From the NCBI GenBank assembly GCA_963752285.1, contig CAVVXN010000005.1:1632001-1696000 (forward strand): 64,000 bases of DNA, written 5' to 3'. Below the pieces are notes generated by a model. That model was not told the origin of the DNA. It saw nothing but the letters and a program-made list of their open reading frames with translations, and searched no databases. This document shows, piece after piece, positions 6,851 through 45,393 of the stretch (position 1 is the first letter of the stretch; the number at the start of each line of letters is the position of its first letter). The translations under genes and the position numbers were made by a program. The stretch comes from an uncultured Planctomycetota bacterium. Lineage in GTDB: Bacteria; Planctomycetota; PLA2; JAEUHO01.

Positions 6851-7177
6851 TCAGCAGCGACAGCTCGGAGACGCTGCGGAGGCCCGCTTGGGGTCGAGCA
6901 CCCCCTCGATGCACTCGAAGAACCCGAGCACACAGGGGGTGAGGAGCCGGTACACCTGCTGCTGGCCACGTCGCTCCGAGGCGACGATGCCCGCGTGCTT
7001 GAGCGTCGCGAGGTGCCGCGAGACCGTGGAGATGTCGTCGCCGACGATGGCCGTCAGGTCGCAGACGCAGCGGTCCCCGCGGGCCAGCTCCTCCACGAGG
7101 CAGAGACGGGTCGGGTGCGCCATCGCCTTGATGACGGTGGCCCGGGCTTCGAGACGGCGGCGCGTGCGGACGTTCAT
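6851..7177 (-). CDS. arsR: ArsR/SmtB family transcriptional repressor
   Basis: KAMAHPTRL...RCVCDL...STVSRHLATLKHAGIV; GGAG RBS upstream; Cys-rich C-terminus SCRC. Confidence 0.9.
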   Translation of the reverse strand: MNVRTRRRLEARATVIKAMAHPTRLCLVEELARGDRCVCDLTAIVGDDISTVSRHLATLKHAGIVASERRGQQQVYRLLTPCVLGFFECIEGVLDPKRASAASPSCRC

Positions 7178-7195
7178 GGTGGGCTCCGGACCTAA

Positions 7196-7228
7196 GTATT
7201 GCGTATTTGGCCAAACTTACAAATAAAG
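7196..7228. promoter_or_regulatory. AT-rich promoter/operator of the ars operon with inverted repeat TATTTG-N10-CAAATA
   Basis: TATTTG at 7204-7209 and CAAATA at 7220-7225 lie in an AT-rich patch just upstream of arsR, typical of ArsR autoregulatory sites. Confidence 0.6.
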
Positions 7229-7860
7229 ACCGAGCGCGACCCGGGTCGGGGCGATGGGAGCGTTCCCTGGCGCAACGCGCCCCGGAAGAAGCGGGCCTCC
7301 CGGCGGGTTCGGGAGAGGACCGCCACGGAGAACCCGCCGCAGGACCCCTCGCGCCCCGGTGGGCCCAGGTGCACGCCTGAGGGTCCCACGTGCACACCCG
7401 GAGCGACTCGTCGGGCGAGGGGGTCGTGCGGGGGTGCCGTCACACCATCGCGACCGAGGGGGAGGGCCGGGTGTACACGGAGCGCTACGACCGCGGCACC
7501 CACGCCGGCCCTGCCAGGCCATGACCACGCGCATCGGGGGTGGGTTCGGGAAGCGGATGCAGATCGTTCGGAACGCGGCCTCCCACATCGAGACCACCGC
7601 CACACGGCATCACGAGGATGGGCCCGGCCGGCCCAGCGCGGCGTACCGAGGGTCCAGCGTGAAGTCGAGGTACGCGGGACTCCCCTCGACCAGCTCGATC
7701 TTCCCCTCGATGTCCGCGTGCCTTGGGGCGTGAAAGATCGAGCCAGGGATTCGGAGGGTGTAGAGGCCCGCCGGCAGTCCGACGGAATCGAACTCAGTCG
7801 CAGCTGAGCGCCGCGGGCCGGCGCGCCGTCTCCCAGATCGCCGCCTGGGTGTCGGGGCGA

Positions 7861-7998
7861 CGCGGCTACGCGGTGCTGTTCGTGCCGGCCTTCAAGCCGG
7901 TGGAGGACCTCCTGGCAGCCAAGCGCGATCTCGCGCCGGAGCGGGAGATCCGGCGACTGGACGAGTTTGACGTGGTGATCGTGGACGACATCGGCTAC
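7861..7998 (+). pseudogene. istB: IS21-family IstB ATPase fragment
   Basis: Reads RGYAVLFVPAFKPVEDLLAAKRDLAPEREIRRLDEFDVVIVDDIGY (IstB Walker B region); no start, and it ends at the stop codon of the PIN gene. Confidence 0.7.
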
Positions 7999-8560
7999 GG
8001 CCCACCGCGAAGGTCGCGCAGTCGCACGACAGAGCGCACGAGCCCGGCATCTTGCAGCGCCGTGAGTACGTCCTCGATCGTACACGGCGGGTTCCCAAGC
8101 GCCGCCGCCTGCTCCCTCAGGACCTGCGCGACGAGAGGCGGGCCTCTTCGATGCGCTCCAGGATGAAGTCGTCCGGGTGCTGTGCCTCGACGCCGTGCGC
8201 AGCCAGTACGGCCGACGGGAAGTCCTTCACGTTCGATGTCACGATGATCTGTGCACGCCCTCGGATCACCGCCGCGAGAACATGACGGTCGTCCGCGTCG
8301 GGGAGTTCCACGTCCTGGATGAGATCCTCGAAGTCGGTGATCTCCCAGTCGGGAATCGCCGCCTTCATCAGCTCGCGGGTTCGGTCGAGCGCGTCCGGCG
8401 CGAGGTCCGGACGTCGAGCGAGGATGCTCGCGAAGCACTCTTCCATGATCCGCTCCGACCACCGGGCGCGCACCATGCCCGCGAGATCGAGCCGGATCAA
8501 CAGGTCGCGCAGCGGCGCAGGATGAAGGACGCATGCGTCGAGGACCACGACGAGCGGCAC
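7995..8560 (-). CDS. PIN-domain (VapC-like) toxin, split by a 1-nt frameshift near 8140
   Basis: VVLDACVLHPAPLRDLL...LPDADDRHVLAA...IVTSNVKDFP...HPDDF; the C-terminus PLVAQVLREQAAALGNPP...LQDAGL lies in the adjacent frame and ends at 7995. Confidence 0.8.
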
Positions 8561-38907: not shown

Positions 38908-39114
38908 GTGAAGAAGGCTTTCCTGGTTCTCGGTCTCATCGCAGCGGCGGGACTCGCCGGAGCGTGCCATCACTACAGCTACGCGGGCACGCCGGGCGCC
39001 ACGACGTACGCGCAGCCCGCCCCGACGGGCCCGATGCCGGCGCCGATGACCGCGCCCCCGATGTCCGCCCCCGCGGCGGGCACGGGCTGCGGCGGCCCGC
39101 ACGGTTGCGGCTAA
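38908..39114 (+). CDS. small Pro-rich lipoprotein with C-terminal CGGPHGCG (68 aa)
   Basis: CAGGAG RBS and GTG start; MKKAFLVLGLIAAAGLAGA|CHHYSYAG...PMPAPMTAPPM...GCGGPHGCG. Confidence 0.75.
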   Translation: MKKAFLVLGLIAAAGLAGACHHYSYAGTPGATTYAQPAPTGPMPAPMTAPPMSAPAAGTGCGGPHGCG

Positions 39115-39329
39115 ACCCCGCTCGCGCGAACGTCTCCGGTCGTCTCGACCGGCCTGACCCCGCTTGACCGCCGCGCCCCCGTCGGCGCGGGTCGGTTCTG
39201 GTCGTCTGCTCTTCGACAAGGGGGAGCAGACGACCTCGTTCCAGGTGGCGCCGGCCGCGCACGCCCTCTGACGCGACCTGCCTGCGCCCGATTCCGGGCC
39301 CCGTGCGCGCATGGCGCCGGGAGGACCAC

Positions 39330-39791
39330 GTGAGCGGCGAACGCCCCGGGACGCCGGACGAGAGTCGGGAGCGCCTCGTCGCCCGACTCGGAGACGAGGA
39401 CCCCGGCCAGCGGACCGCCGCCGCGAAGGCGCTCGGCCGACTCGGGCCCACGGCGCGCGAATTCGCGCCGGAGCTCCTACCGGTCCTCGGGGACGAGGAC
39501 CCGATGGTTCGGGCGATGGCCGCCGCGGCGCTCGGGAAGATCGGCGCCGACGAGGACCGGGTCGTGCAGGCGCTCGGCCTCCTCCTCGACGACGCGGTGG
39601 TGCCGGTTCGCTTCTGGGCGGCCGACGCGCTCGGACGGCTCGGTGCCTCGGCGGGCCCGCTCCTGGCACGACTCGACCGGCTGGCGGCGAGCGGTCCGCC
39701 TCCGGTCTCGAACGCGGCCCGACTCGCCGCCAGCCGCATTCGATCGGCAAGGGCGGGCGAGGATCAGGGGTCGGACGCGATCGGGCGGTAG
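39330..39791 (+). CDS. HEAT-repeat protein
   Basis: GGAGG RBS; repeats LGDEDPxxRxxAAxALGxxG. Confidence 0.8.
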   Translation: MSGERPGTPDESRERLVARLGDEDPGQRTAAAKALGRLGPTAREFAPELLPVLGDEDPMVRAMAAAALGKIGADEDRVVQALGLLLDDAVVPVRFWAADALGRLGASAGPLLARLDRLAASGPPPVSNAARLAASRIRSARAGEDQGSDAIGR

Positions 39792-39802
39792 AATCCCGCG
39801 CG

Positions 39803-40030
39803 ATGCCGAGTCCGCATTCCCTCCGCCGCCTCGCCAACCTCTCGAAGAAGGTCCACGACGACCTCCGGCGCGGCGGGATGGCGATGACGTTCAAGTACCT
39901 CTTCCGCTCCACCGCGATCTTGGCCCGGGTGACGGCGATCCTCGCCGACTACGTGGCGACCGAGGCGGGCGCCCCCGCCCAGGAAGGCGAAGAGCCGCCC
40001 GGGAAGCGGGGCCTTCGCACCGGCCGCTAG
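39803..40030 (+). CDS. small hypothetical protein (75 aa)
   Basis: TAGAAT 8 nt before the ATG; MPSPHSLRRLANLSKKVHDDL...; coding-like codon usage. Confidence 0.55.
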   Translation: MPSPHSLRRLANLSKKVHDDLRRGGMAMTFKYLFRSTAILARVTAILADYVATEAGAPAQEGEEPPGKRGLRTGR

Positions 40031-40053
40031 CCCGCCGGGCCCGCCCCCCTCGA

Positions 40054-41208
40054 TCAGCGCGCGGCGCGCCGCGGCGGTGCGGTCGGGGGCGCGGCGCCTT
40101 CGCGGGCTTCGGCGGAGAGGAGCTCCAACGCGCGCCTGTTCGCGCGGGGGAACGCGTAGCCGTCCAGGTCCGAGAGGCGGACGAAACGCGGCGACTCGCA
40201 CGCGAGCGGGCGCGGACGACCGCGGGCGCACGAGCAGTGGAAGAGGTGGAGCGTGATCTTCATGTGCGTGTAGGCGTGGTCGATCGCCACGAACCGGCGA
40301 CCGACCGCGACCTCGAGACCGGTCTCCTCGCGGACCTCGCGCGCGCAGGCCTCCTCGAGCGTCTCCCCCCGCTCCCGCTTCCCGCCGGGGAACTCCCAGA
40401 GCCCGCCGAGGAGACCTTCGCGGGGCCGGCGCGCGACGAGGAGCCGGTCGCCCCGCCACACGAGACCCGCCGCGATGTCGTGGTGCGGGACCGGCTTCCT
40501 CGCGGGCCTGTGGGGCAGCGCGGCTGCCCGGCCGCGAGCTCGGGCGCGGCACACGTCCGCGAGGGGACACACGTCGCAGCGCGGCGCCCTCGGCACGCAG
40601 ACCGTTGCGCCGAGGTCCATCACGGCCTGGTTCCAGTCGCCCGGCCGGGACGCGGGGAGGAAGGCATCCGCCGCGCGGCGCACGCGTTCTCTCGCCGCGG
40701 ATCGGGTCACGTCGCCGCCCTCGTCGAGGAGTCGCGCCACGACGCGGACCACGTTCCCGTCCACGACGGCCGCCGGGCACCCGAACGCGATGCTCGCCAC
40801 CGCGGCGGCCGTGTACGGCCCGAAACCCGGAAGGGCCACGAGGGCCTCGACCTCGCGCGGGAGGGTCGCCCCGTACCGCGCCACGAGCACCCGGGCCGCG
40901 CGGTAGAGGGACCGCGCCCTCGCGTAGTAGCCGAGCCCCTCCCACGCCTTCAGGACCTGGTCCTCGCGGGCGCCCGCGAGGGACCGGACGTCGGGGAACT
41001 GCGCGAGGAACCGCGGCCAGCGGTCGAGGACCGTGGCCACGCGCGTCTGCTGGAGCATGGTCTCCGAGACCCAGATCTCGTAGGGGTCCCGGGTGCGGCG
41101 CCACGGGAGGTCCCGCGCCGCGCGGTCGTAGTGGGCGAGGAGACGGCGACGGACGCGCCGCACGAAGGACGCGTCCGGGCCCGACGACCCGGTGTCGCGG
41201 GCCCGCAC
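40054..41208 (-). CDS. mutY: A/G-specific adenine glycosylase with C-terminal NUDIX-like domain
   Basis: RDLPWR, WVSETMLQQT, WEGLGYYARAR, LPGFGPYTA, VDGNVVRV, CxxxxPRCxxCPLxxxC, GLWEFPGGK; start uncertain (41163-41265). Confidence 0.93.
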   Translation of the reverse strand: MRARDTGSSGPDASFVRRVRRRLLAHYDRAARDLPWRRTRDPYEIWVSETMLQQTRVATVLDRWPRFLAQFPDVRSLAGAREDQVLKAWEGLGYYARARSLYRAARVLVARYGATLPREVEALVALPGFGPYTAAAVASIAFGCPAAVVDGNVVRVVARLLDEGGDVTRSAARERVRRAADAFLPASRPGDWNQAVMDLGATVCVPRAPRCDVCPLADVCRARARGRAAALPHRPARKPVPHHDIAAGLVWRGDRLLVARRPREGLLGGLWEFPGGKRERGETLEEACAREVREETGLEVAVGRRFVAIDHAYTHMKITLHLFHCSCARGRPRPLACESPRFVRLSDLDGYAFPRANRRALELLSAEAREGAAPPTAPPRRAAR

Positions 41209-41285
41209 GCGGGAAGGGCCGTCTCGGCGTCCGCCTCTGGCGGACGCCCGGGAACGATCGGTCACGGGTCGCGCCGACGGCGCGA

Positions 41286-41819
41286 CTAGGGAGCCGCTCA
41301 GGTCCCGCCGACGCAGGGCTCGGGCGCGGCTCTCGGCGCGCCCGCCCCGGCGAAGAGGCCCTTCATCGACCCGCGCGACGCCGCGGGGCGCGGCGTGGCG
41401 ACGGCCTCGCGCGGCGGCATGACCGGCGCGGCGACGGCGGGCTGAACCCGCGCGGTGCGGCTGACCGGCACCACCGGCGTCGGCCCGGCCAGGTCGCGGC
41501 GTACCAGCGGGACCGCGCGATGCCCGCGCATCAGCTCCATCGAGGGCGGCGCCGGCGTCGGGGGCCGCGCGGTGGTCGTCGCGACCACGCGCGGCTCGAT
41601 CACGACCGGCCGCGCCACGGGTCCGGCATGCACCGGTCCGGAGATCACGGGGCTCGGGCTCACGGGCCTCGAGCTCACGGTGCGGCGGATCACGCGCGGC
41701 GGCGGCAGCGCGGCCCGGGAGGCCACGCTCGTCCGACGCTGCGACAGCCCGCCCGAGGCACAGCCGCCGAGGACCACGACGGCCCCCAGCGCGAACGCCA
41801 CGGTTCTCGGCATCCTCAT
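41286..41819 (-). CDS. Pro/Arg-rich lipoprotein paralog C; ends at TGA 41298, or reads through as Sec to TAG 41286
   Basis: GGAGG-rich RBS; lipobox VLGG|C; C-terminus EPCVGGT-TGA-AAP-TAG aligns with DPCAGGRCxVP of its paralogs. Confidence 0.8.
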
Positions 41820-42104
41820 CCTCCCCCTCCGGGGGTCCGGCCGGGGCGACGACCGTCGCCCCTCGGCGTCGGTCGAGCGGGCCTCCTGCCTCCCTCGGAA
41901 TCGGCTCGCACGGGCATGGAATCCACCGCGGGTCACCGGCAGTTCACGAGACGGGGGTCCCATTCGTCCCGGTTCGCTCCTCTGAACGCCCTCTTCACGA
42001 TCTCGAGGGCCAGGGTGTACGGCCTCGTCGGCCGCTCCTTCGACGCGCCGAGACAGCGCGGTCCTCCCTCGGGAGCCCCGGTTTTGGGCGTCCGTCCGCA
42101 CCGG

Positions 42105-42665
42105 TCAGGGGACCAGACACCGGCCGCCGGCACACGGGTCGGCCGCACAGGGGGAAGGCGCGGCCACCGGGGACGCCCGCGGCGACTCGAAGAGGCCGCG
42201 CAACTCCGAGAGCGAGCTCGTCCTCGCCGCGCCGAGCGACCTCGGGGCCCGGGGCGCGGGAGCGGCCCGAGCCGGAAGCGGCGAGGCGACGGAGAGCCGG
42301 AGCGGCGCGGGACGGCTGACGGGGACGACCGGCGTCGGGCTCGAGAGGGCCCGCCGCGCGATGGACGACGTGCCCGGTCTCGCGAGGATCTCCATCGACG
42401 CGGGCCGCGGCGGCCCCGGCGCGCGGACCACCGCCGGCTCGGGCGCTGCCAGGCGCCTTGTCTCGACGACGCGCGGCGCGACGAAGGCCGGCGTGACGGT
42501 CCGGGCCGCGGCGACGGAACGGACCGGGAGGCGATAGGACGCGCTCCGCACGACCGGAGGCGGGAGGGACGCGCGTGAACGCGGCACCCGGACGGGGGCG
42601 CCGGGGGCCGCGCAGGCACCCAGGAGCAAGAGCCCCCCCATCCCGAACGCCAGGATCTTCGACAT
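42105..42665 (-). CDS. Pro/Arg-rich lipoprotein paralog B
   Basis: AGGGAGGA RBS; MSKILAFGMGGLLLLGA|C...; ends PCAADPCAGGRCLVP. Confidence 0.8.
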   Translation of the reverse strand: MSKILAFGMGGLLLLGACAAPGAPVRVPRSRASLPPPVVRSASYRLPVRSVAAARTVTPAFVAPRVVETRRLAAPEPAVVRAPGPPRPASMEILARPGTSSIARRALSSPTPVVPVSRPAPLRLSVASPLPARAAPAPRAPRSLGAARTSSLSELRGLFESPRASPVAAPSPCAADPCAGGRCLVP

Positions 42666-43323
42666 CGTCGTCCTCCCTGTCGCGACGAGGGACGAGGGGG
42701 TCACGCGCGCCGGCCGGCGCCGGCGGACCCTCTCGTCTTGCCTCCCGTGGACCCGGGACTCCACGCGCTCGCGGAGCCCGCATCGCGGAGGGATCGCTCG
42801 TTCGGGCCCGGACCAAGGACCACGAAGACCGTCTCACCGGCGTCGGGCGCGGCCCCTCGGGGGTGCCGCGTCGGCGCGCCCCCACGGGCGACCAACCGCC
42901 CGCCCGTACGGGCGACCGGTCGATGGGCGCGCGCGAGTCGCGCGCCCGCCGTACGACGACGCATCGGTGTTCGGATGGCCCTGCTTCCCAACGAGCCCGG
43001 GAGGACGAGCACGCCTCGCCCACCACGAATCCCTACCCTGTCGGGCGACCACTCTAGCGGGTCCCTGGGCGCCCCCCAAGAGAGGATTCCTCGCCGCGCG
43101 TTCGGGCCCCCGTCGGACGTGCAGGGCGCGCCGATGGCTCTCCAGGCCCTGAAAACAGGGCGGGAAGGCGCCGGACCGAGCGGGCAAGGGAAAGGGGCCG
43201 CGGGATCTAAGTCCCATGGCGCCCACAGACCCGGGGCTCTCTACGGGGCCCGGAACGGGCCACGACGGGCGTACGAGCTGCCGGCCGGGCGGGGGCGAGC
43301 GGGGCTCGGGTCGAAACGGGCCC

Positions 43324-43698
43324 TCAGGGGACCCGGCAACGGCCGCCGGCGCAGGGGTCGCAGCCGTCGTCGGCCGTCTTCGGGCACGGGCGGAACAGGG
43401 TCCCGAGGCTCCCCGAGTGGACGGTCGCCGAGCGGCGGGCGGCCTGGGCCTCGGACGCGTCGGCCCCCGCACGCACGGCACGACGCGACACGAGCGTCGC
43501 GGCGGACGCCGGCTGCGCCTTCGACGCCGCGGTCGCCGCCACGTGCACGACGGCCGTGGTCGTGGTCGGCCGGGCGTCGCTCACGCGCGGCGCCTCGGGG
43601 CTGGTCACACCGGCGAGCACGCGCTCCCTCGCCAGCGGTCGCGACGCACACGCGGCGAAGAGAAGCGCGACGAGGGGAAGGAACATCGAGGTCTTCAT
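43324..43698 (-). CDS. Ala/Arg-rich lipoprotein paralog A
   Basis: GGAGGAG RBS; MKTSMFLPLVALLFAA|C...; ends GTLFRPCPKTADDGCDPCAGGRCRVP. Confidence 0.8.
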   Translation of the reverse strand: MKTSMFLPLVALLFAACASRPLARERVLAGVTSPEAPRVSDARPTTTTAVVHVAATAASKAQPASAATLVSRRAVRAGADASEAQAARRSATVHSGSLGTLFRPCPKTADDGCDPCAGGRCRVP

Positions 43699-43926
43699 CG
43701 TCTCCTCCGGTCCCGGGGGGCCTCCACCCGGGGCGAGCGCGGGCATGCGCACCCGCTCTTCCGTATTCATGGCCCGCGAAAGCGCGTGTGGCATGGCTTT
43801 CGTGGGCGTCCTGAATGCAGAGGGAACGTGTAAGGAGAAACCTCTTCACGCGCCCCGAGCGCGGTCTTCATGGACCCTGGTACCGTCTCCGCGGACCCGG
43901 CGGTCGGGACCAGCGCGAGGAACGAG

Positions 43927-45393
43927 ATGCCCCGTAGGAACAGGCCGGGACCGGGTGGCGATGCCGCGGCGTCGCGCGCGTCGCGCCCCGTGGCCGGAGC
44001 GGCGCTGCTGGGGCTCCTCGCCGCGTTCCTCGGCGCGTCGGGGCTCGAGGCGGGCGAGTCGGACGGCGTCCGGTGGGAGCCGGACCTCGAGGCGGGGCTG
44101 CTCCGCGCCGCGAAGGAGGGCCGCCCCGTCCTCCTCGCCGTGAACGCGATCGAGACGGAGGCCGCCAACCAGCGTCTGGCGGGCGAGATCTACCCGTCGG
44201 CGGCGTGGGGCGACGCCACGCGCGACTGGGTCGCGTTCGTCGGGAACCCGAACGCGCACGGCGGCGCGGCGTGCTCGCGATACGGCGGCATCCCGTGCGC
44301 GACGCACCAGGCGGTGCTCCGCTACGTCGTGCGGCGCTTCGCGCCCGGCGGCGACCTGATCAGCCCGCAGCACCTCGTCCTCGACCCCGACGGGCGCCTC
44401 GCGTTCCGCAAGGAGTACTTCACGGGCGTGGTGGGCCCGGACTTCTTCGACCGGTGGCTCGCACGGCTCTGCCCCACCATCACGCTCGACCGGGCGGCGC
44501 GCCGGCGCCCCGACACGATCGACGCCCTCGGCGCCGCGCCCGTGGAGAAGGTGACGGACACGGCGCGGGCGTGGCTACGGAGCGGCGACCCTCTCGCGCC
44601 CGCCGGCGTGCTCGACGCGATGGACTACGCCATGGAGGAGCCGCGACGGGTCGCGCTCGCCCTGTCGTTCGACGCGACGCCGAAGGAGCTCCTCGCCGTG
44701 CCGTGGACGGCGGCGTACGACGCCGCCGTCGCGCCCGACGACGCGCCCGAACGGACGCTCGCGTTCGTGACCGCGTTCCTGCTCGCCGATCCGGGCACGG
44801 GCGCCGACCTCGCGGCGCGCGCCGCCGTGCTCACCCGGGACGCCTCCCTGTCGAGCCGGGTCCTCGCCGCGTGGGTCGGCGGGCCGGTACCGGCCTCCGG
44901 CGTCGTGCCGGGCCTGGACGACCGGGCGGCGGCCCGCCTCGCGGAAGTCCTGGCGCTCCTCGGTCGGCCGGACGGCGGGCGGGCGCCGGAGAGGCTCCCG
45001 CCGCCTCTCGCCGCGCGCCTCCAGCGCGCCCGGGAGAAGGCGGGGCGCGCCGCGACGCCCGCGCCGCCGCTCGCGCAGGTCCTCGCCGCGGACCCCGCGC
45101 CGGGCGCGCTCCGCCGGGCGGTCCTCGCCGCCGCGCCGGACGCGGTCCTCGCGTCCGAGGCCGAGGTCCGCGCGCTCCTCGACCGTCCGGAGGAGCGCGT
45201 GCGCGTGGCCGCCGCGCTCGCGCTCCTCTCGACACGGCGCCGGCTCGACGCCGCGGCCGAGGCCGTGCTCCTCGCCGCGGTCTTCGACCCCGTCGAGGGG
45301 CCCGACACGCGCGAGCTCGCCGCGCTGCGTCTCGGGACCGACCCGGGCCGCGACGAGGAGACATGGCGACGCGCGTTCGAGGCCCGCAGGTGA
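43927..45393 (+). CDS. secreted protein with an N-terminal thioredoxin-like fold and a helical-repeat C-terminus
   Basis: Signal-like hydrophobic stretch; VRWEPDLEAGLLRAAKEGRPVLLAV...CSRYGGIPCATH...PQHLVLDPDGR; start uncertain. Confidence 0.6.
   Translation: MPRRNRPGPGGDAAASRASRPVAGAALLGLLAAFLGASGLEAGESDGVRWEPDLEAGLLRAAKEGRPVLLAVNAIETEAANQRLAGEIYPSAAWGDATRDWVAFVGNPNAHGGAACSRYGGIPCATHQAVLRYVVRRFAPGGDLISPQHLVLDPDGRLAFRKEYFTGVVGPDFFDRWLARLCPTITLDRAARRRPDTIDALGAAPVEKVTDTARAWLRSGDPLAPAGVLDAMDYAMEEPRRVALALSFDATPKELLAVPWTAAYDAAVAPDDAPERTLAFVTAFLLADPGTGADLAARAAVLTRDASLSSRVLAAWVGGPVPASGVVPGLDDRAAARLAEVLALLGRPDGGRAPERLPPPLAARLQRAREKAGRAATPAPPLAQVLAADPAPGALRRAVLAAAPDAVLASEAEVRALLDRPEERVRVAAALALLSTRRRLDAAAEAVLLAAVFDPVEGPDTRELAALRLGTDPGRDEETWRRAFEARR

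Follow-up and report, generated by a model that had tools for sequence, protein, structure and literature searches.

Two of three tandem paralogs encoding predicted small lipoproteins in an uncultured Planctomycetota bacterium end in a motif with a pair of cysteines, and the third carries a UGA codon where the second cysteine would stand. Is this UGA an ordinary stop, a sequencing error or a codon for selenocysteine (Sec), and, if it is Sec, what might such a protein do? We examined the locus in a stretch of 64,000 nucleotides of contig CAVVXN010000005.1 (assembly GCA_963752285.1; hereafter the window), in the genome to which it belongs (4.64 Mb, 89% complete, 73% GC) and at the corresponding position in related genomes. 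Features are listed in Table 1.

Table 1. Features of the paralog C locus, in positions of the window
Feature	Position	Strand	Remarks
mutY-like gene, downstream synteny marker	40054..41265	-	name from sequence resemblance
Putative SECIS hairpin, 8-bp stem, GUC loop (GTC in DNA)	41268..41286	-	in 3' UTR
Paralog C gene, predicted Sec-form lipoprotein	41286..41819	-	177 aa with U174; alternative ATG two codons later
True stop TAG, three codons past the UGA	41286..41288	-	TAG in 7/8, TAA in 1/8 TGA forms, after 2-4 codons
C-terminal tail C-V-G-G-T-U-A-A-P (CX4U)	41289..41315	-	paralog C
In-frame UGA, very likely Sec	41298..41300	-	TGA in 7 genomes and L100; Cys in 16 genomes and paralogs A/B
Pro/Ala/Val/Arg-rich linker, predicted disordered	41316..41759	-	conserved motifs PPSMEL, VVPVSRxxRVQPAVAAP
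Predicted lipoprotein signal peptide, lipobox LGG-C20	41760..41819	-	by inspection; C20 invariant in A1/A2
Conserved upstream element, 11-bp-period direct repeat GTGAM-N6-GTGAC, then TTCCAT/TCCAAT hexamer	41916..41947	-	in 19/25 upstream regions
Paralog B, Cys form CAGGRCLVP	42105..42665	-	ends DPCAGGRCLVP at a TGA stop; without SECIS-type hairpin
Paralog A, shorter Cys form CAGGRCRVP	43324..43698	-	ends DPCAGGRCRVP at a TGA stop; without SECIS-type hairpin
Divergent neighbour X, upstream synteny marker	43870..45393	+	kept in 28/29 family genomes

A UGA codon in the place of a conserved cysteine

The ATG of paralog C (41817-41819, minus strand) is in frame with the TGA at 41298-41300. With this TGA read as U, the gene encodes 177 residues that end EPCVGGT-U-AAP at a TAG codon, and U174 is aligned to the last (second) Cys of paralogs A and B. 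A preliminary description of this DNA had placed the TGA at exactly that cysteine, had stated that readthrough gives a matching length and a terminal Pro, had reported an 8-bp stem with a G-first loop starting 11 nt past the UGA, and had called the product a CxGGxU lipoprotein; the alignment bears out the first two statements (CVGGT-U-AAP against CAGGRCRVP and CAGGRCLVP), the stem is present at 41268-41286, and inspection revealed the lipobox LGG-C20, with Sec as a candidate and the lipoprotein as a prediction. The gene has a clear coding signal: in conserved blocks of five orthologs, differences at the three codon positions number 38/14/115, and 94 codon differences are synonymous and 46 nonsynonymous.

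An in-frame TAG or TAA follows within 2-4 codons in all eight TGA forms, against 8 of the 2521 TGA-ended background genes (0.3%). As an argument for Sec the choice of stop codon loses weight, because 7 of the 18 Cys-form genes also end in TAG. Since just 2-4 codons could be compared past the UGA, conservation there is thin, with Pro in 7 of the 8 post-UGA tails, as in the xxP of the Cys forms.

Orthologs with TGA, with Cys and with neither

At the syntenic position, the 29 family genomes comprise 7 with TGA (G000, G001, G009, G011, G012, G013 and G018), 16 with Cys, 3 with a similar lipoprotein that lacks the paired motif (G006, G023 and G019) and 3 fragmented assemblies in which no ortholog was seen (G010, G041 and G042). 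Two identical metagenome records, L100 and L101, counted once, also have TGA. Each of the 16 Cys genomes encodes one to three Cx[G/D]GxCxxP units; the CxGGxCxxP unit is repeated two or three times in 6 of the 16 orthologs, acidic or His residues precede it in several, and the orthologs of G002 and G005 contain 19 Cys each. The absence of the paired motif from three orthologs indicates that the tail is dispensable in some lineages.

The close orthologs recovered by sequence search are those of G001, G009 and G011, and in all three a single TGA occupies the identical codon. A profile search matched just 4 of the 29 family genomes, and divergent orthologs were identified by synteny (upstream of mutY or of neighbour X) and by the upstream element, whose presence in 19 of 25 upstream regions backs their orthology. 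A contig end truncates the G012 gene and an assembly gap interrupts the G018 gene, and in both the N- and C-terminal parts were joined by position alone. A class-wide DNA pattern, applied to 40 genomes, gave matches in G015, G017 and G019 and no member beyond family f1 (0 of 11 in f2), and it is insensitive, as it also missed G001, G013 and G018. Database searches returned ten proteins and fourteen representatives, one of the latter a spurious match of 4062 residues; 9 of the 10 and 10 of the 14 end in CxGG[T/G], which reflects standard gene calling, and Cys forms among them are few (including P0016-P0018). The family was found in one uncultured Planctomycetota lineage only.

Five orthologs, those of G017, G003, G008, G024 and G007, contain an inserted segment (L046:2720-3679 -, L043:655-1401 +, L048-L050) that we take to resemble a YHS/TRASH metal domain; the two that were scanned gave no Pfam match. 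Elsewhere in this genome, a second CPGGT-TGA with a hairpin (C5:339053) is out of frame with a likely real gene and was judged a chance occurrence.

A hairpin behind the true stop accompanies TGA

The stem opens on the last base of the TAG stop, a G, and the rest of the hairpin belongs to the 3' UTR; in paralog C its loop is 19 nt from the UGA. Bacterial SECIS elements (bSECIS) place a G-containing apical loop 16-37 nt downstream of the UGA (PMC13188914, Fig 2A). A G[U/G]-loop hairpin of 6-10 pairs was found 19-22 nt downstream, with compensatory changes, in 8 of 8 TGA copies as against 1 of 22 Cys sites. In a strict test (stem of at least 6, G[GT] loop, 15-24 nt on, a range chosen after the candidates were known), the background was 96 of 2521 TGA-ended genes, or 42 of 2521 with a stem of at least 7, and five of the seven control selenoprotein genes, whose loops stand 20-23 nt downstream, passed; the two that failed are SelD and the TUGYCR redoxin. 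The published bSECIS consensus (PMC13188914, Fig 2 legend), applied in our own coding of the rules and not through bSECISearch, was found at 8 of 8 TGA sites and behind 631 of 2521 (25%) ordinary TGA-ended genes.

Five of the eight pairs change on both sides, and the covariation score, computed on an unfitted MAFFT alignment and inflated by relatedness, was 0.42 as compared to 0.157 for shuffled alignments (0/500) and at most 0.129 for slid partners; the eight TGA copies are not independent, because those of G000, G001, G009 and G011 form one clade. The element is free to covary because it lies behind the true stop, outside the coding sequence, and its position in the 3' UTR means that its gain or loss leaves the protein untouched. 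Folding z-scores did not discriminate (-2.1 over 45 nt, -0.1 over 61 nt), an Rfam scan of 39000-44500 yielded nothing at the gathering score, and a scan of the window region for sigma-70 promoters and terminators called none; the hairpin has no U-tract. Behind the TAG of the Cys-form ortholog of G014 lies a degenerate copy of the SECIS-like hairpin (L070:3661-3705, +), which hints at a relic of a Sec ancestor and hence at reversion in that genome.

Selenocysteine machinery and control selenoprotein genes

The genome encodes selA (E 3.9e-152), selB (1.4e-94; about 34 kb from gene C), selD (2.0e-106; itself with one in-frame TGA) and tRNA-Sec (70 bits), all above curated cut-offs. Among the seven TGA genomes, selA was present in all and tRNA-Sec at E<=1e-9 in six, the tRNA not being found at that threshold in G011 (83% complete); tests of further TGA genomes found selB in 5 of 5 and selD in 5 of 5. 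Of the 29 family genomes, 26 had selA above the cut-off and 22 had tRNA-Sec, and because the machinery is near-universal in the family, the choice between Sec and Cys does not track it.

A scan of the genome for readthrough candidates listed 46 TGAs, from which nine were picked by eye; selD, missed by the scan, brought the set to ten, of which nine were scanned. Seven of the genes are of known selenoprotein kinds and served as controls: SelD, a SelW-like protein, three Prx/redoxin-like or TUGYCR proteins and two ResA/TlpA-like proteins. The genome encodes several thioredoxin-fold selenoproteins with signal-like N-termini. Three other observations concern UGA codons elsewhere. A DUF5049-containing ORF at C5:1450531 of G000 (L107:117-485, -) reads C-A-R-TGA (CxxU-like), with coding-like sequence past the TGA and an atypical hairpin; a HEAT-repeat ORF at C5:2261009 of G000 (L109:66-2000, -) has an in-frame TGA after PMW, with the frame open on both sides and no clear SECIS; and G017, G003 and G000 (two copies) share an exported family, unrelated to paralog C, that has Cys-UGA or UGA-Cys near its N-terminus (L015:979-1749 (-), L017; L131, L132).

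TGA forms do not form one clade

In a 28-row tree of the flanking proteins, TGA forms appear in four places: a clade of G000, G001, G009 and G011; G012; G013, beside the Cys-form G004; and G018, placed among Cys forms with 100% support. A single TGA clade was rejected (AU p 3.5e-6), with at least 4 changes, on 17 of the 28 rows; left out of the AU test were six of the rows with Cys, the three that lack the motif and the two in which no gene was seen. The tree is built from two flanking genes, not from species, and, being unrooted, does not separate gain from loss. The Sec form of G018 stands beside G022, which has two repeats, and that of G013 beside G004, which has three.

How the UGA is read

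A hairpin by itself is weak evidence at 73% GC, and the case for Sec rests on the comparative data, from which we conclude that the UGA of paralog C is, with high probability, decoded as selenocysteine. A rival to this conclusion holds that the UGA is an ordinary stop, that the protein ends in CxGGT and that the hairpin is a terminator or an mRNA-stability element before mutY. TGA does end 2521 of the 3341 called genes of this genome, hairpins are common at its GC content, a caveat of the preliminary description with which the 25% background of the published consensus agrees, and the database proteins do end in CxGG[T/G], although this reflects the calling of genes by standard rules. Such a stop is nevertheless hard to reconcile with the near-exclusive pairing of hairpin and TGA or with the second stop within 2-4 codons, the hairpin lacks a U-tract and a terminator call, a separate terminator-like hairpin lies further on in G001, and TGA would have had to arise at one Cys several times, each time with a hairpin; we regard this explanation as very improbable. 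That TGC was misread as TGA in this genome, through a base-call or assembly error, has a practically negligible probability: the preliminary description had raised it as a caveat, and the identical TGA in six other assembled genomes and two identical metagenome records makes it untenable. Among the contigs listed for a check of this codon, none spans 41298, and a contig that ends at 41241 accounts for the depth of run X1 in that bin. Since the TGA carriers are not one clade, neither such an error nor a single nonsense mutation from TGC to TGA, the remaining caveat, fits the distribution. The searches that had been suggested for the selenium genes and for orthologs both returned what Sec decoding predicts, namely selA, selB, selD and tRNA-Sec in the genome and, in orthologs, TGA followed by a brief in-frame tail and by a hairpin that covaries. 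Paralog C very likely represents a new selenoprotein family of one Planctomycetota lineage, in which the decoding appears standard, the protein unusual and the function a matter of inference.

The protein, its neighbours and the upstream element

Paralog C has a basic N-region, a hydrophobic stretch and a lipobox Cys by inspection, from which lipidation and export are predicted; the G008 ortholog lacks the lipobox Cys. The linker of about 150 residues is dominated by Pro (18%), Ala (16%), Val (13%) and Arg (13%), and an AF2 model from a four-sequence alignment had no fold (mean pLDDT 53, pTM 0.12), its sole helix being H6-17. No NCBIfam or Pfam family exceeded the cut-off with any of the three paralogs or with the 14 other homologs scanned, and when the last 30 residues of paralog B were compared with PDB sequences, the only matches were chance ones to the IL-11 receptor (E at least 0.27). 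The family as a whole retains just a signal peptide, low complexity and the tail, which makes the tail the likely working part.

Downstream lies a gene that we take to be mutY-like (40054..41265, minus strand), by sequence resemblance. In G001, mutY is inverted relative to the ortholog of C and the separate terminator-like hairpin lies past the SECIS (L060, about 7156-8350), so that co-transcription of the gene C ortholog with mutY is not required. Neighbour X consists of an N-terminal hydrophobic helix, a predicted thioredoxin-fold domain without a canonical CxxC, and helical repeats (AF2 pLDDT 87); Foldseek gave weak matches to DsbH and DsbD-gamma (E about 0.01-0.04) and none at E<=0.001, and the tie of neighbour X to paralog C is limited to divergent synteny and this weak thioredoxin-fold match. 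The consensus of neighbour X has H-x6-C-x7-C-x2-H inserted in the predicted fold that lacks CxxC, possibly a metal site. A second small lipoprotein, whose Pro-rich linker runs into a Cys-rich end (GCGGPHGCG), is encoded 2 kb away (38908-39114, +); it has no Pfam or NCBIfam match, and its counterpart in G009 ends CGGCGGPAGCG (L061 from 4338, +).

The element upstream of gene C, absent before paralogs A and B, is likely a regulator site with a promoter; its repeat resembles an OmpR/PhoB-type site. The repeat is enriched in non-coding DNA, with 32 matches at spacer 6 as against 5-20 at other spacers. Twelve genes downstream of repeats, picked by eye for signal-like N-termini, include those for two OprO/P porins, a secretin, a SurA-like protein and a TPR lipoprotein (sites in G000: C1:616339, C1:614772, C3:153888, C3:156272, C5:1218848, C5:572201 and C2:166155). 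The repeat may mark an envelope regulon, and this context of gene C leans towards a role in envelope upkeep.

Possible functions of the tail

We propose that Sec insertion goes together with the role of a swinging redox arm, a combined reading for and against which the chances seem to us evenly balanced. The genome's SelB/tRNA-Sec system would read the UGA as Sec by means of the hairpin just past the TAG, and the product would be a lipid-anchored, disordered envelope protein, both properties being predictions, with a C-terminal Cys-x4-Sec pair. The tail would alternate between a selenolthiol and a selenenylsulfide state, with one of the exported thioredoxin-fold proteins reducing it again, and would hand electrons to envelope targets or scavenge oxidants for them, acting like the CX4C tails of ribonucleotide reductase (RNR) and FrnE but in trans, because the protein has no enzyme domain of its own. 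It is from these tails, which shuttle electrons at the C-terminus of RNR (PMC11067019) and carry them in FrnE (PMC8945050), that we infer a membrane-tethered redox arm. As a more tentative proposal, on balance somewhat doubtful, this domainless selenoprotein might be a stand-alone, tethered Sec 'whip', a diffusion-limited electron or metal shuttle acting in trans for envelope enzymes; the same proposal sees repeated flips in the family between a single Cys-x4-Sec pair and a series of Cys-x4-Cys repeats, which we hold with equal reserve.

The Cys-rich repeat forms suit metal binding or cross-linking equally as well as a redox role, and two other functions of an inserted Sec were weighed against the redox arm. 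One, possible if rather unlikely, is that the tail binds or senses soft metals (Cu, Hg, Ag, As) as a tethered, metallothionein-like chelator, as might be suggested by the orthologs with 19 Cys, by the 6 of 16 with two or three units, some preceded by acidic or His residues, and by the five with the insert presumed to resemble a metal domain (no Pfam match in the two scanned). The conserved synteny includes no metal transporter, however, and TGA forms with a single CX4U pair would have a low capacity as chelators, although many Sec proteins are implicated in metal resistance (PMC13188914) and SaoC, a lipoprotein ending CU-COOH, sits in a system proposed to handle metals (bioRxiv 10.1101/2022.07.06.499078). 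The other, which we think distinctly unlikely, is a structural lipoprotein whose tail forms intermolecular S-S or Se-S cross-links in the envelope: planctomycete envelopes are described as Pro- and Cys-rich and disulfide-stabilised (PMC3035269, PMC8567305), paralog C is itself a Pro-rich predicted lipoprotein, and its upstream repeat also precedes genes for porins, a secretin, a SurA-like protein and a TPR lipoprotein, but a costly Sec would be unexpected in a static cross-link, and YTV wall proteins are reported, in the available part of that literature, from Planctomycetales only (PMC8567305). Identity with a YTV cell-wall protein was rejected, as Pfam found no YTV repeat domain in any member scanned.

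Gene callers miss the Sec form by four residues, so that databases hold a plausible protein with its reactive pair halved, and the combination of anchor, flexible linker and CX4U tip suggests a class of short-tail selenoproteins overlooked by domain-based searches. With at least four switches between Sec and Cys in one bacterial family and a covarying SECIS in the UTR, the family offers a compact system for studying Sec gain and loss and, if the 'whip' reading is true, a natural experiment on the benefit of Sec over Cys; the CX4U tail is short enough for synthesis and assay.

Comparison with known systems

Like bacterial genes that depend on SelB and a SECIS, paralog C has a UGA aligned to the Cys of homologs and a G loop downstream in a genome with selABCD, and its family resembles this genome's own selenoprotein genes (selD, SelW-like, Prx- and TlpA-like) in loop position, at 19-22 against 20-23 nt. 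In the usual bacterial selenoprotein gene the SECIS is part of the coding sequence, whereas the putative SECIS of paralog C follows the true stop, in the 3' UTR. The fold of most catalogued bacterial selenoproteins is thioredoxin-like (PMC13188914), but C has neither this nor another recognised fold. A CX4U-tail lipoprotein family is absent from the 119-family Table 1 of PMC13188914 (2026), as far as that source was available, and no description of one was found in literature searches that covered BSepDB in part, a supplementary or unpublished listing being possible.

A flexible C-terminal tail tipped by a CX4C or CX4U pair, here within the last 10 residues, is shared with RNR alpha (PMC11067019) and with FrnE of the DsbA family (PMC8945050); their tails are cytoplasmic and serve a catalytic domain in the same chain, whereas C has none, is predicted to be exported and has Sec as the second member of the pair. 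C was rejected as a FrnE/DsbA-like protein, having no Pfam match, no CxxC-containing DsbA or thioredoxin domain and no fold in the AF2 model, and the DsbA-like form 2 with DxxUP (PMC13188914, Table 1) requires a DsbA domain that C lacks. KCU-star/DUF466 (NF033934), a small protein ending Lys-Cys-Sec-COOH, is likewise small and has Sec near the C-terminus, but its motif differs, its HMM does not match C, and C has a lipobox and a long low-complexity linker.

Nearest in layout, as far as its description was available, is SaoC (NF040734; bioRxiv 10.1101/2022.07.06.499078), a lipoprotein of comparable length (158 aa on average) with Sec at its C-terminal end, in which the UGA is soon followed by UAG, a 7-bp SECIS with a GGU loop lies past the stop, and both Cys and Sec forms occur. 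C is not SaoC itself: the NF040734 HMM gave no match to it at E<=1, nor at E<=0.5, and it has no CC- or CU-COOH ending. SaoC, one component of a nine-gene SAO system, has the ending Cys-Sec-COOH, whereas C ends C-x-G-G-x-U-x-x-P and stands by mutY and a predicted thioredoxin-fold gene.
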